Shown here: positions 55,962 through 61,693 of the stretch, piece after piece
Numbering within the stretch: the first letter of the stretch is position 1
Layout of the letters: every line of letters begins with the position of its first letter
NCBI RefSeq assembly: GCF_011045215.1
Contig: NZ_CP049201.1
Strand: one strand, 5' to 3'
Length of the DNA: 64,000 nucleotides
From: Escherichia coli
GTDB taxonomy: Bacteria > Pseudomonadota > Gammaproteobacteria > Enterobacterales > Enterobacteriaceae
Position numbers and translations under genes: made by a program
The notes under the pieces: model-generated
Seen by the model: only the letters and a program-made list of their open reading frames with translations
Told to the model about the DNA's origin: nothing
The model's database searches: none

Positions 55962-56894
55962 GTGAGTGAAAAAAATCATACCACCCCCACGCCACACGAT
56001 GCGGCGTTCAGGGCGATGATGGAAACCCCTTCGGTTGCAAGGGATTTTCTGGAGGCTGCGTTGCCGCCGGCACAGTTACAGCGGTGCGATATGAACACCC
56101 TGAAGCTGGAGCCGGCCACGTTTGTGGATCCGGATTTGCGTCAGTATGCCAGTGACGTTCTGTGGAGCATGAAAACCACCGACGGGCGTGATGGTTACAT
56201 CTACGCGCTGACGGAACATCAGAGCTCTGCGGATCGTTTTATGGCCCTGCGCATGATGCATTATGTGCTGGCGATAATGTATCGTCACCTGAAAACGCAT
56301 AATCAGGCCCCCGTTGTGATCCCGGTGCTTTTTTATCACGGTGAACCCAGTCCGTATCCGTACAGCCTGAACTGGCTGGACTGTCTGGACGATCCGGCGC
56401 TTGGTCGTGAGCTTTACGGCGAAGGAAAGCCGCCCCGCGTCATTGATGTGGGTCTTCTTGATGATGAGGGTATCCGTCACTATCAGCAGATGGCGGCCCT
56501 GATGCTTCTGATGAAGGTCCGTCAGCGGAAGGGCGATCTGATGACGCAGCTTGACTTTCTGTCACAGTTGCTTCAGATACAGGGAACACACGATCAGGTG
56601 GTGGTTCTGTTAAACTATATGGTGAAGGCGTGCGATTCGGCTTCACCGGAATTTATACGGGTGATGGCAGAACATCTGCCCCGGTATGAGGATGATATTA
56701 TGACTATCGCTGAACGACTTGAACTGGCGGGTATCGAAAAAGGTATCGAAAAAGGCCGTCAGGAAGAGAGAGAAAAGGCGCTTGAGAAGACGCTTGAGGC
56801 TGCCCGTCGGATGCAGAAGATGGGGATGTCGCCTGAGAGTATTCAGGAGATCCTGCAGCTTTCTGATGACGAGCTGCGGAAAGCGCTCGGTTAA
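55962..56894 (+). CDS. Rpn-family (YhgA-like) PD-(D/E)XK recombination-promoting nuclease / putative transposase
   Basis: N-terminus TPHDAAFRAMMETPSVARDFL...YASDVLWSMKT...YIYALTEHQS resembles E. coli RpnA-E; C-terminal helical domain. Confidence 0.75.
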   Translation: MSEKNHTTPTPHDAAFRAMMETPSVARDFLEAALPPAQLQRCDMNTLKLEPATFVDPDLRQYASDVLWSMKTTDGRDGYIYALTEHQSSADRFMALRMMHYVLAIMYRHLKTHNQAPVVIPVLFYHGEPSPYPYSLNWLDCLDDPALGRELYGEGKPPRVIDVGLLDDEGIRHYQQMAALMLLMKVRQRKGDLMTQLDFLSQLLQIQGTHDQVVVLLNYMVKACDSASPEFIRVMAEHLPRYEDDIMTIAERLELAGIEKGIEKGRQEEREKALEKTLEAARRMQKMGMSPESIQEILQLSDDELRKALG

Positions 56895-58452: not shown

Positions 58453-59178
58453 GTGAAGATGAGACTGAAATCCCTGTTACTGGTGATGCTGATACCTGCA
58501 CTGGCGCAGGCTGCAGACCAGAACACGACCGGGACGGACGCGTCCCGCACGGATACGTCACAGCATACGCAGAGCACCACGCAGTCGCTGCAACAGCAGG
58601 CTGGCCGGTGGGGACTGAGTGAGGAGGACTGGGGGCGTTATCAGGAACTGATGGCGGGACCCCGCGGGATACAGTCGCCGGGTCTGGACCCGCTGACAGC
58701 ACTGGGTATTGAGGCCCGTACACCGGCTGAACGCCGTGCATATGCCGAAAAGTGGGTGAAGGAAGAGTATGCCCGTACGGAGAAGGAGCTGGCTTTTCAG
58801 CGGGAGGTTGATGCGGCATGGCAGCGTCTTTATCCCGGAAAGCTGCCGGTCAGTATGGGCAATACCGGTATTCTGACCGGGGACACCGGAGGCAGACTGG
58901 CGCTGTTTGTGAAGGCGAAGGACTGTGCGTCCTGTGATATCCGCCTGAGTAAGGTGCTGGCATCCGGTAAGCCGGTGGATATTTATCTGGTGGACAGTCA
59001 GGGGAAAGACGGAGTGCTTCGTCAGTGGGCACGTGAGCACAACATCCCACCAGAGAAGGTCCGCAGCCGGCATATCACCCTGAACCATGATGCGGGGCGC
59101 TGGCTGCGTTTTGGTGAGGGACAGATGCCGGTGGTACTGCAGCAGGGGGCAGACGGATGGCGCGTGGCTGCATTCTGA
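58453..59178 (+). CDS. Exported ICE conjugation-module protein with a CxxC motif
   Basis: Signal peptide MKMRLKSLLLVMLIPALAQA; contains CASC. Confidence 0.5.
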   Translation: MKMRLKSLLLVMLIPALAQAADQNTTGTDASRTDTSQHTQSTTQSLQQQAGRWGLSEEDWGRYQELMAGPRGIQSPGLDPLTALGIEARTPAERRAYAEKWVKEEYARTEKELAFQREVDAAWQRLYPGKLPVSMGNTGILTGDTGGRLALFVKAKDCASCDIRLSKVLASGKPVDIYLVDSQGKDGVLRQWAREHNIPPEKVRSRHITLNHDAGRWLRFGEGQMPVVLQQGADGWRVAAF

Positions 59179-59819
59179 GTCTTCTGCTGATGACGGGCAT
59201 GTGTCAGGCCGTTGCGCAGACCATTCCGGACGGCTATGTGCAGGTGGCCCGTGCACATGGGATTCCGGCAGAAGTGCTGTATGCCGTCTCCCTGACAGAG
59301 ACCGCCATGGCACCCGGGGATGTGGCCGGCGTCATGCAGTATTCCCGCCGCGACGGGCGTCTGCCGGATGTCTCCCGCCCCTGGCCCTGGACACTCAATG
59401 TGGCCGGGAAGGGGTACCGTTATGCCAGCCGTCTGGAGGCCTGGCAGGCACTGCAGGTGTTTCTGAAACGTTATCCGGCCAGACGCATTGATGTCGGGAT
59501 AGCGCAGGTCAATCTGGGGTGGAATGGTCATCGCTTCCCGTCAACATGGGCGGCCTTTGACCCGTACATCAGTCTTGAGACGGCGGCGGTCATTCTGCAG
59601 GAGTGCCGTCAGCGCCATCCCGACAGCTGGCTGAAGACAGCCGGTTGTTATCACCATCCTGCCGGTGGAAAGCCGGCCGCCCGTTACACCGCTGTGGTCA
59701 GACGTCATCTGGACCGGCTGTATGTCCGGTCAGCAACAACAGGTATGACGTCACGGCAGACAGCCATGCTGGCACCGGCTGCGGATTATATCTGGACAGA
59801 GCCCCGGAGGCGCGAATGA
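59157..59819 (+). CDS. Lytic transglycosylase (SLT domain), conjugation-associated
   Basis: Signal peptide, motifs AVSLTETAM and VGIAQVN typical of SLT domains. Confidence 0.6.
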   Translation: MARGCILSLLLMTGMCQAVAQTIPDGYVQVARAHGIPAEVLYAVSLTETAMAPGDVAGVMQYSRRDGRLPDVSRPWPWTLNVAGKGYRYASRLEAWQALQVFLKRYPARRIDVGIAQVNLGWNGHRFPSTWAAFDPYISLETAAVILQECRQRHPDSWLKTAGCYHHPAGGKPAARYTAVVRRHLDRLYVRSATTGMTSRQTAMLAPAADYIWTEPRRRE

Positions 59820-60343
59820 ACAGACTGAAACGGATTATCCCTTTTACTTTTCCTGTATGGCTTCTGTTTTCAGCGAACGTCAGTGCTGAACTGACGGTGA
59901 TTGCTGACCTGGGCGGCAGGGATGCTGCTCCTTTTTTTGAGGGTATCAACCGGCAGGCACCGGCTTCTGCTCCGGTTGTTTCACCACCGCCTCTTCTGCA
60001 GGGGGAAGCCGCGATGCTGCCGGTCAGCACACCTGAAATGTCACCCGGCGAGGTGACACCACGCCCGCTTCAGCTACCGGGCATCGGTGCACTTTTCCTT
60101 GTGGGGGATGATGCGTATTCCCGCGAGTGGCTGCAGAAAAATGCTGCTGCGCTCCGGGCGCGCCATGCCGTCGGGATGGTGGTGAATGTGGCTGATGAAA
60201 ACGGCCTGCGCACGCTGCGTGAACTGGCCCCCGGCGTGGCGATGGCACCGGCATCCGGTTCTGCGCTGGCCCGCCGGTTACAGCTGAAGTCTTACCCGGT
60301 ACTGATAACGGACAACGGGCTGTCACAGGAGGTGGTGCCATGA
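59816..60343 (+). CDS. Exported ICE conjugation-module protein
   Basis: Signal peptide MNRLKRIIPFTFPVWLLFSANVSA; overlapping start/stop with neighbours; the track ORF start 59603 is an upstream extension. Confidence 0.5.
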   Translation: MNRLKRIIPFTFPVWLLFSANVSAELTVIADLGGRDAAPFFEGINRQAPASAPVVSPPPLLQGEAAMLPVSTPEMSPGEVTPRPLQLPGIGALFLVGDDAYSREWLQKNAAALRARHAVGMVVNVADENGLRTLRELAPGVAMAPASGSALARRLQLKSYPVLITDNGLSQEVVP

Positions 60344-60945
60344 TGCCGGCACCAGTGATAACCGCAGCCCTGCTGGTCAGCCCGGTGCTGATGGCCTGTC
60401 TGATGCTCTGCCTGCTGACCGTGTTGCTGATGCTCATTCTGCGGGAATGTCGACGGAAACGGGGAGGTGTCCGGAACCGTCGCCATCAGCGTTACCGTGC
60501 CACCGCCGCCCGGGTACTGGGCAGACTGAAGACGCTGCCGGGGGATGCGCATCGTCTGAAGTATCTGCGCAAAATCAACCCGTATGTCTTCGAAGAATTG
60601 CTGTTACTGGCCCTGAAGCAGCAGGGGATGACGGTTATCCACAATCCCTGCTACAGCGGTGATGGTGGTCTGGACGGACAGGTGATGATTAACGGTGAGC
60701 GCTGGCTGATACAGGCAAAGCGCTACGGACGGACCATCCGCCCGGCACATATTGATGCCTTCGGGGAACTGCTGCGCCGGGAGGGCTGCCGGGGGTTTTT
60801 TATTCATACCGGCCGTACGGGGCCGGCCAGCCGGGCCAGGCTGACACTGTGGCCGGATATCGAACTGGTCAGCGGGCAGCGTCTGCTGAAACTGCTGAAC
60901 GGAACATTACTGACAGATGAACTTACCAGAGGGGAGCGGAGATGA
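60340..60945 (+). CDS. Membrane-anchored protein with Mrr-like restriction-endonuclease catalytic domain
   Basis: N-terminal TM helix, basic stretch, then PD-(D/E)XK-like GDGGLDGQVMINGERWLIQAKRY. Confidence 0.5.
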   Translation: MMPAPVITAALLVSPVLMACLMLCLLTVLLMLILRECRRKRGGVRNRRHQRYRATAARVLGRLKTLPGDAHRLKYLRKINPYVFEELLLLALKQQGMTVIHNPCYSGDGGLDGQVMINGERWLIQAKRYGRTIRPAHIDAFGELLRREGCRGFFIHTGRTGPASRARLTLWPDIELVSGQRLLKLLNGTLLTDELTRGERR

Positions 60946-61454
60946 TGACGGTAAAACGGATGTTTATGCTTTTATTCAGAGTGGTGATTGTCTGGCCGGC
61001 CATGCTGACGGGATGCCTGATGATGCTGTATTTCGCAGAGGTTGCCAGCGGTGGTGTGACAGGGCTGGCGCAGCGTTATGAGGCGGAGTCTGCCCGCTGG
61101 CGTGATGCGCCGGAAGGGGCGGTGATGATGCTCCGGTGTCCGTCGCGTCCCTTTGTGGTGCCGGTAACAACCGGGGAGTGGCGTGCACTGTCCGCCACTG
61201 ATGCAGAATGCCTCCGGGCACCGCGCTCTTTCAGGCAGGCTGCGGAGGCAGATTTTCAGTCACTGCACATACTGGCGCTGACACTGCTGCTGGCATCCGT
61301 GGTTCTGGAAGGCATTTCGGCCGGCATGTTGCGCCGGAAAACCGCATCCGTACCGGTATCACCACACTGTGGATGTGGCCGGGGCCGTGGTGCGGTTGCA
61401 CACTGGCCTGAGCGTGACAGTGATGCGACATCACAGAAGGGAGGCCCGGTATGA
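60942..61454 (+). CDS. ICE integral membrane protein
   Basis: Hydrophobic N-terminus MMTVKRMFMLLFRVVIVWPAMLTGCLMMLYF; coupled to the previous gene. Confidence 0.5.
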   Translation: MMTVKRMFMLLFRVVIVWPAMLTGCLMMLYFAEVASGGVTGLAQRYEAESARWRDAPEGAVMMLRCPSRPFVVPVTTGEWRALSATDAECLRAPRSFRQAAEADFQSLHILALTLLLASVVLEGISAGMLRRKTASVPVSPHCGCGRGRGAVAHWPERDSDATSQKGGPV

Positions 61455-61469
61455 CCGTTTCACTGCTGG

Positions 61470-61625
61470 CCCGTGTGCAGGCAAATGTTCCTTGCAAAAT
61501 GGCATCTGAATCGATCGCAGTTTGGCATTCGAATCGATCATGATTTGGCATCCATCTCCGATCACAGTTTGGCATCACAATCGATCACGATTTGGCATAC
61601 TTCCGATCATTGATTGGAATTCGCC
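61470..61625. repeat. IS21-family terminal region with multiple direct repeats (putative transposase binding sites)
   Basis: Five copies of tttggcat-N8-10-gatc(a/g) immediately upstream of istA. Confidence 0.7.
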
Positions 61626-61693
61626 AGTCACTCCGGGAATTAACTCTTTTCACCACAGTCTCCATTGCCGTGTTTAAACCAGTGGAGACGTCA

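Follow-up and report, generated by a model that had tools for sequence, protein, structure and literature searches.

The DNA considered here, which we call the window, is a stretch of 64,000 nucleotides from contig NZ_CP049201.1 of the Escherichia coli assembly GCF_011045215.1, and our subject is a gene lying there within the transfer operon of an ICE (integrative and conjugative element). An earlier note, made from the DNA letters alone, had described the product of this gene as a membrane-anchored protein with an Mrr-like nuclease domain; the open reading frame (ORF) of 201 amino acids (aa) that we found on the plus strand coincides with the one in that note at both limits. The features of the gene and its product are the following:

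60340–60945, plus strand: gene of the membrane-tethered Mrr-family nuclease, 201 aa (ORF list and Pfam Mrr_cat match)
60327–60332, plus strand: Shine–Dalgarno sequence AGGAGG, 7 nt 5' of the nuclease ATG, read from the sequence
60352–60441, plus strand: single transmembrane helix, aa 5–34, predicted to run with the N-terminus out and the C-terminus in (Kyte–Doolittle hydropathy, flanking charges, helical in the AlphaFold model)
60442–60531, plus strand: basic juxtamembrane linker, aa 35–64, with 13 K/R, within a long helix of aa 15–65
60565–60897, plus strand: Mrr_cat nuclease domain of the PD-(D/E)XK type, aa 76–186
60589–60597, plus strand: Mrr motif I, F84-E85-E86, from the family alignment
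60661–60675, plus strand: Mrr motif II, D108-G-G-L-D112, from the family alignment
60712–60720, plus strand: Mrr motif III, Q125-A-K127, from the family alignment

The nuclease core had been proposed on the basis of the residues GDGGLDG (aa 107–113) and IQAKRY (aa 124–129), and its Mrr-like PD-(D/E)XK identity was confirmed by a match to the Pfam profile Mrr_cat (PF04471) that covers aa 76–186 and the profile from end to end (positions 1–115 of 115; E = 7.5e-18; 65.2 bits, the cut-off being 21). The three motifs of the Mrr family were defined by Smith et al. 2009 (PMC2790908): motif I carries F-E, whose glutamate is E38 in LlaGI and E172 in Mrr; motif II reads D-x-G-x-D, with an extra, Mrr-specific Asp four residues before the catalytic one (D74/D78 in LlaGI, D199/D203 in Mrr); and motif III reads Q-x-K, in which the Gln replaces the usual acidic residue (Q92/K94 in LlaGI, Q219/K221 in Mrr). 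In LlaGI, cleavage was abolished by the substitutions D74A, D78A, and K94A and reduced by E38A and Q92A (PMC2790908).

A search for relatives among 1.84 billion cluster representatives returned 1,027 sequences at E ≤ 0.001 and 609 at E ≤ 1e-10, nearly all of 170–230 aa, and the alignment of our protein with 141 of the listed representatives—142 sequences in total, from 141 divergent clusters—revealed little or no variation at the motif positions: in motif I, E85 is present in 142/142, E86 in 140/142, and F84 in 135/142; in motif II, D108 in 141/142 and D112 in 142/142; and in motif III, Q125 in 142/142 and K127 in 141/142. Conserved in addition are Y105, G109-G110, R128-Y129, H156-T157-G158, T160, and S178-G179, and a subset alignment of 74 sequences gave the same catalytic-residue conservation. 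The "D-E-K triad" of the earlier note thus stands as a conserved catalytic set but not in its composition, which is really E85 / D108-x3-D112 / Q125-x-K127, since E120 of the ERWL segment is a variable position (Q, E, or K) across the family.

With respect to the fold, a family-profile search of the Protein Data Bank (PDB) sequences aligned DGGiDG...iQaKRY to DTGVD...IQAKFY of LlaBIII (residues 74–96), which match, though marginal (E = 0.45), places the motifs in register, with D108/D112 corresponding to D74/D78 and Q125/K127 to Q92/K94; apart from this, querying the PDB with either the protein itself or the profile of the family produced only chance matches to designed repeat proteins. The AlphaFold model from the single sequence was poor in the core (predicted local distance difference test, pLDDT, of 66) and was superseded by a model built from the 74-sequence alignment (pLDDT 92.5; predicted template-modelling score 0.81). 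In this latter model, helices span aa 15–65 (from the membrane segment into the basic linker), 81–94 (with E85), and 135–148, and strands span aa 98–101, 113–117 (with D112 at the start), 120–127 (with Q125 and K127), and 151–156, in the alpha-beta-beta-beta-alpha-beta arrangement of the restriction-endonuclease-like fold. A fold search with the model led to Mrr-like nucleases, and no different fold was assigned by either profile search or structure prediction. By every sequence and fold criterion examined, then, the domain belongs squarely to the Mrr nucleases; its active site is intact and under strong constraint, and it would be expected to catalyze cleavage.

These same data bear on the suggestion, made in the earlier note, that the domain might be degenerate—i.e., catalytically dead and retained only as a structural or DNA-binding piece. 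In line with such a notion are a weak secondary match to NA-iREase1 (PF22722, NACHT-associated inactive restriction endonuclease 1; E = 0.0059) and the presence of H101 and C104 at positions where most family members have R. The NA-iREase1 match, however, scored 17 bits against a cut-off of 27, and we rejected membership in that family because the catalytic residues are all kept; H101, for its part, is found in ten close E. coli and S. Typhi clusters, nine of which also have C104, with intact motifs in all of them, so that both residues are, as judged from the alignment, a lineage trait of the E. coli/S. Typhi subgroup that leaves the motifs unaffected. Since all the residues required in characterized Mrr-family enzymes are present and invariant across the homologs, the dead-domain reading is contradicted, and we consider it very improbable. 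In the comparison with the orthologous E. coli copy (locus L001), 13 of the 16 amino-acid changes fall within the first 46 residues, and only 2 inside Mrr_cat.

The N-terminal part of the protein, described previously as a transmembrane helix followed by a basic linker, was corroborated in both elements by hydropathy, by charge distribution, and by the AlphaFold helix of aa 15–65. The segment of aa 5–34 is hydrophobic, with 19-residue Kyte–Doolittle means of up to 3.1, and is preceded by no charged residue, while the 13 K/R of aa 35–64 are accompanied by only 1 D/E, which distribution, under the positive-inside rule, suggests a protein that crosses the membrane once, its N-terminus lying outside and the remainder in the cytoplasm. 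This organization is shared by the family: a single N-terminal hydrophobic helix is present in 120/142 sequences, with a median of 9 K/R over 25 residues on its C-terminal side and none on its N-terminal side, and the members without the helix mostly look N-terminally truncated. A signal peptide in place of an anchor was considered and discarded, as the segment has no positive n-region, extends as a hydrophobic run of 30 residues, and is flanked by strongly basic residues on the distal side. Two natural variants were also observed. One (P0006; E. coli, 340 aa, 4 contigs) is an in-frame fusion of a DUF2859 protein—the family of the product encoded immediately upstream in the window—with the membrane helix and the Mrr domain, which arrangement is consistent with the predicted N-out/C-in topology of the nuclease and may point to physical contact between these neighbors; in the other (P0015), a deletion of another kind has taken away the membrane helix, and this protein is probably defective.

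The absence of any other domain sets this protein apart from Mrr-family enzymes such as Mrr and LlaGI. No Pfam match to Mrr_N, to a winged helix, or to any other DNA-recognition domain was obtained, residues 1–65 being accounted for by the membrane helix and the basic helix; in the longer family members Pfam revealed no further domain; and in NCBIfam we found no model dedicated to this membrane-tethered family. As a comparison set for the Mrr-family domain we took E. coli Mrr, the N-terminal nuclease of the Type ISP enzymes LlaGI and LlaBIII, and AF1548 (PDB 1y88). Whereas Mrr joins its nuclease to a winged helix, and LlaGI to helicase, methylase, and target-recognition domains, the window protein has only the membrane helix and the basic linker; moreover, Mrr- and LlaGI-type enzymes reside in defense loci, while this nuclease is encoded in conjugation operons. 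By its domain content, which lacks a recognition domain, the protein is not a Type IV restriction enzyme of the EcoKMrr kind.

That the ICE might nevertheless carry the gene as defense cargo, its product being a modification-dependent (Type IV) restriction enzyme acting by itself or some other nuclease directed against phages or plasmids, is suggested by the public annotations "restriction endonuclease" and "mrr", by weak domain-level matches to the PADLOC models mREase_IV (E = 1.2e-5) and PDC-S02 (E = 8e-6), by the patchy presence of the gene among related elements (ICEclc does not have it), and by its position away from the transfer genes in some plasmids, the IncN copy even adjoining the EcoRII restriction–modification genes. 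The PADLOC matches, however, cover the nuclease domain alone (aa 73–186, against the C-terminal third of the models; for mREase_IV, model positions 166–291 of 317), and no defense model was matched over its full length. Mrr_N or any other recognition domain is missing, the N-terminus being a membrane helix; the start and stop codons overlap those of neighbors inside a core transfer operon, and not in a cargo hotspot; and the sequence is unusually constant, one and the same architecture being shared by enterobacteria, sphingomonads, cyanobacteria, and Bacteroidota. We accordingly rate defense cargo as unlikely, while giving it more weight than we gave a dead domain.

The surroundings of the gene bring in three further features:

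59816–60343, plus strand: gene of a PFL_4695/DUF2859 periplasmic protein, the upstream operon partner (Pfam DUF2859, E = 5.5e-50; TIGR03765, E = 4.6e-40)
60942–61454, plus strand: ORF of 170 aa with a lipoprotein-type signal (..MLTGC..), which forms part of the variable stretch separating the nuclease gene from traD
61493–64000, plus strand: IS21-family insertion sequence ISSso4 (istA at 61592–63259, istB beyond), inserted in the transfer operon before traD

The ATG of the nuclease gene overlaps the stop codon of the DUF2859 gene (ATGA), and its own stop shares nucleotides with the start codon of the ORF that follows. These overlaps indicate that the nuclease is co-transcribed and translationally coupled with the transfer genes; because of this coupling within the operon, just upstream of TraD, the protein would be made together with the transfer apparatus of the SPI-7/ICEclc type. 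Farther upstream, Pfam and NCBIfam matches identified genes for TIGR03759 and for a lytic transglycosylase (59157–59819) ahead of the PFL_4695/DUF2859 gene.

The same segment, at 96–98% DNA identity, occurs in E. coli chromosomes, 19 out of 5,426 complete genomes having it, and the orthologs there carry the annotation "restriction endonuclease". An intact copy of the ICE begins with ParA ... DnaB, ParB ... topoisomerase III, Ssb, and Rpn; continues with PilL-N, a Tat-signal protein, TIGR03759, the transglycosylase, DUF2859, and the "restriction endonuclease"; and ends with two genes for hypothetical proteins, of 170 and 262 aa, followed by TraD, TIGR03747, and the remaining ICEclc/SPI-7-type secretion genes. 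The location within a conjugation gene cluster, as first supposed, is thus upheld by the transfer genes upstream and, in the near-identical ICEs, by TraD and the type IV secretion system downstream. In the window, the homology to the intact E. coli ICEs ends at 61491–61492, and from 61493 onward the sequence is 100% identical to annotated copies of ISSso4, the insertion point lying 42 nt into the 262-aa gene, upstream of the position of traD; with its transfer operon interrupted in this way, the window copy of the ICE may be transfer-defective. A scan of the window for tRNA genes as a border of the island found none.

As to the small ORFs between the nuclease gene and traD, they vary from ICE to ICE. 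The 170-aa ORF of the window has a lipoprotein-type signal (..VWPAMLTGC..) and a second hydrophobic stretch, matched no family in profile searches, and has detectable homologs in only 4/33 related loci; homologs of the 262-aa ORF cut by the insertion sequence are likewise found in few related ICEs only. A conserved downstream partner was sought in the ORF that follows the pOXA-48 homolog (L082, 7477–7962; ..ALLLTGC..), which candidate we rejected for want of BLASTP similarity to the window ORF beyond the signal. A further observation on the island concerns an Rpn-family (YhgA-like) recombination-promoting nuclease gene, which synteny with L001 (16951–17895) places at 55962–56894 of the window; just upstream of the transfer operon, it would be a second PD-(D/E)XK-type nuclease on the island.

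The window element shares with the ICEclc/ICEHin1056-type system—whose transfer type, G in the classification of mating-pair formation (MPF), was defined by Daveri et al. 2023 (PMC10018362)—a framework consisting of PilL-like, TIGR03759, lytic transglycosylase, DUF2859, TraD, and TIGR03747. In ICEclc, however, which serves as the experimental model of this family and where 22 of the 24 ORFs of the region were individually deleted, the DUF2859 gene (orf71178) is listed directly beside iceD4/TraD with no gene between them (PMC10018362); and because of that absence we regard the nuclease as a lineage-specific addition and not as a core gene of the MPF_G system.

To learn what accompanies the gene elsewhere, we scanned one genome per species, which gave 153 relatives, and kept the best 80 loci for neighborhood counts. 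ICE loci of the window's type with a TraD or a DUF2859 neighbor account for 32 of these 80 and come from Enterobacterales, Shewanella, and Photobacterium; a 33rd (L017), at a contig edge, has only a VirB4-like gene. The 4-nt overlap between the DUF2859 and nuclease genes recurs in 27/33 related loci. In the TraD-positive set, made up of 31 kept ICE loci and, as a 32nd, the annotated copy of E. coli (L001), the nuclease stop overlaps or abuts the traD start in 18/32, and the others have one or two variable small ORFs before traD, as does the window; in Shewanella and Photobacterium, the nuclease gene is still fused to traD though DUF2859 is 2–3 kb off.

A second arrangement was found in 24 loci, mostly of the Sphingomonadales, in the order coupling protein, TrwC relaxase-helicase, nuclease, and a secreted protein of 180 aa, in which series the coupling protein has a TrwB_AAD_bind domain with F-type TraD as its best NCBIfam match, and the secreted protein has weak similarity to IagB/TrbN transglycosylases. 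The nuclease gene, furthermore, overlaps a coupling-protein gene downstream in a Micavibrio contig and upstream in a contig of Crocinitomix (Bacteroidota), while in four further loci a coupling protein is found no more than 10 kb away, KorB or a DUF3363 relaxase being close by. The remaining loci have plasmid-like neighbors—ParM-like, ImpB, HipA, topoisomerase, and DUF3987—and the metagenome contigs of three distant representatives were too short for gene context. In sum, a coupling-protein gene is located within ~3 kb in 58/80 loci, in four arrangements, the two main coupling-protein families being only distantly related; and in the ~47 non-ICE loci the clustering of neighbors revealed no conserved partner besides the coupling protein, the relaxase, and the transglycosylase-like gene. 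In four element types—the window ICE, the sphingomonad operon, IncN, and an MPF_F Enterobacter plasmid—a gene of the lytic-transglycosylase type lies within ~1.5 kb of the nuclease (L037, 10528–11070; L084, 3659–4393; L092, 3576–4286; window, 59157–59819), the one in IncN being traL; this proximity may reflect only a position at the start of secretion-system operons.

The earlier note had offered entry exclusion and DNA processing at the transfer pore as alternative roles, and the linkage to the coupling protein, to the extent that gene order can speak to function, favors the latter. Entry (surface) exclusion would require that an inner-membrane protein block or destroy the DNA of a second donor in a cell already carrying the element, which role might suit a small protein, predicted to be single-pass in the inner membrane and having its gene, like those of exclusion proteins, among the transfer genes, and whose nuclease could conceivably degrade incoming DNA. 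To our knowledge, though, the known exclusion proteins work through protein recognition at the envelope, while almost the whole of this protein is predicted to be cytoplasmic; such tight coupling to the coupling-protein gene is not expected of an exclusion factor; and the IncN and IncM plasmids with a family member have separate exclusion systems (PMC8923210 and, for ExcA/TraY, as cited in PMC8125031). We therefore find an exclusion function quite unlikely.

The family extends widely over plasmids: a tblastn search against PLSDB detected homologs in 2,593 records, of which 2,023 are typed as conjugative, and the gene is a common component of the backbones of conjugative elements with the mating-pair types G, T, F, and I. 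The supposition that a nuclease of this kind is unusual among conjugation genes consequently fails as regards frequency, given a large family on several types of conjugative element, and holds in the sense that the family is unstudied. The IncN "mrr" and pOXA-48/IncL-M proteins, uncharacterized members of the same family whose position on the element differs from that in the ICE, are 47–51% identical over the domain and keep the helix and the basic stretch. In the IncN plasmid N3 the gene is annotated "mrr" and follows kikA (PMC3347995); we observed that it lies in an operon divergent from traL/korA and beside the EcoRII restriction–modification genes, that the intact IncN copy encodes 215 aa with the helix and basic stretch, and that the copy of plasmid pLJ1 (L083, 7013–7522) has lost the 5' end with the membrane helix beside an IS4321/class 1 integron insertion, which interruption puts the IncN gene at or near the site of insertion of the resistance region. 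In plasmid papers the term "MRR" mostly stands for "multiresistance region" and was discarded as a pointer to the nuclease. The MPF_F Enterobacter plasmid has the order SLT transglycosylase, hypothetical protein, nuclease, and TraP, with a MobF relaxase nearby, and in Xanthomonas and Shewanella plasmids the gene is found among replication, partition, or helicase genes. A cluster of homologs with 58% identity (P0098, named from Salmonella 4,[5],12:i:-) occurs on at least 1,000 contigs, so that a widespread epidemic lineage of Salmonella would have a family member as a fixed component.

The pOXA-48-like IncL/M protein, which measures 195 aa and likewise has the helix, together with the basic run RRRRRRH, is encoded by a gene that overlaps an upstream helix-turn-helix gene and adjoins resD, parM, and a PLD-family nuclease gene, and the Xanthomonas gene lies between replication and partition genes; such settings lend some plausibility to a toxin-like or maintenance function—addiction, an abortive response, or an aid against multimers or in segregation—with the nuclease kept harmless by its tether or by a partner. 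Against that possibility, no candidate antitoxin or regulator stands beside the gene in the ICE or sphingomonad operons, and the lack of a conserved partner in the non-ICE loci, apart from the three genes named above, likewise speaks against it, so that we judge this function decidedly improbable.

The reading that we prefer is that of an Mrr-type endonuclease tethered at the inner membrane, on its cytoplasmic side, and acting beside the coupling protein, the motor that passes DNA to the transfer channel, which proposition as a whole we hold to be evenly balanced between right and wrong: this assessment combines high confidence in the anatomy (the membrane anchor, the basic linker, and the Mrr domain) with a tentative view of the pore-associated role, to which we attach distinctly less than even credence. 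In this proposal, a DNA-endonuclease domain devoid of a recognition domain, but presumably competent in catalysis and, like other PD-(D/E)XK enzymes of the Mrr kind, dependent on divalent metal, would be held at the membrane by its single helix and the long, very basic helix that follows; produced along with the transfer machinery of an ICE of the SPI-7/ICEclc type, the enzyme would come to lie beside TraD, itself anchored by N-terminal membrane helices, and would cut DNA at the cytoplasmic mouth of the conjugation channel. There it might, for example, clear the DNA of stalled or aborted transfers or destroy DNA arriving through the channel, and we maintain both options with regard to the target: the element's own DNA, in termination or in the clearing of stalled transfer, or foreign or returning DNA. 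The nuclease would in either event be a dispensable accessory of DNA transfer and not a classical restriction enzyme; that it is an accessory and not a required step follows from its absence from ICEclc and from the location of the gene elsewhere in some plasmids. A bolder version, which we find possible but rather doubtful, is that the family constitutes an unrecognized working part of conjugative transfer, docked through the membrane helix to the coupling protein, cutting at the channel entrance, and recruited independently by the G, T, F, and I types, in which case it could bring transfer to an end or abort it, unblock a jammed channel, or degrade DNA that returns through the pore.

Several considerations weigh against the preferred reading. 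Mrr-type domains usually cleave double-stranded DNA, and the transferred DNA is single-stranded. The loci are not phylogenetically independent and amount to some four or five separate arrangements; the topology of the nuclease, being a prediction, has the positive-inside rule as its sole basis; and the gene of the IncN, pOXA-48, Xanthomonas, and Shewanella plasmids is found in regulatory or maintenance regions and not beside the coupling protein, which placement fits a portable general-purpose function equally as well as a pore-specific one. The full-text literature that we searched, most subscription journals being outside that search, contained no functional study of any family member and no analysis of the family or of its link to the coupling protein. 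Finally, ICEclc, which lacks the gene, transfers efficiently (Table 1, PMC10018362), and the nuclease is for that reason not essential for the ICEclc-type secretion system.

Other nucleases invite comparison. The PLD-family Nuc of IncN, IncI, and IncM plasmids is also a nuclease on a conjugative plasmid backbone, though periplasmic and of the different PLD fold, while the NERD-domain proteins, PD-(D/E)XK-like and often membrane-anchored, belong to a different PD-(D/E)XK subfamily; we know of none among either group that is coupled to coupling-protein genes. Nuc, for its part, is dispensable for R64 transfer (PMC8125031).

The family described here sits on the backbone of the clinically important IncN and pOXA-48/IncL-M resistance plasmids and on SPI-7-type islands of Salmonella and E. 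coli, where the current label "restriction endonuclease" is generic and probably wrong; and the model plasmids R46/N3 and pOXA-48 already carry a family member. If the protein does act with the coupling protein, a nuclease step would be added to models of conjugation that now have the relaxase as the only DNA-cutting enzyme, and a testable handle would be gained on how transfer ends or is policed. If, instead, it is a membrane-positioned nuclease for defense or competition, the gene would represent a very compact, single-gene system, in which tethering, in replacement of sequence or modification recognition, would be an unusual means of limiting self-damage.

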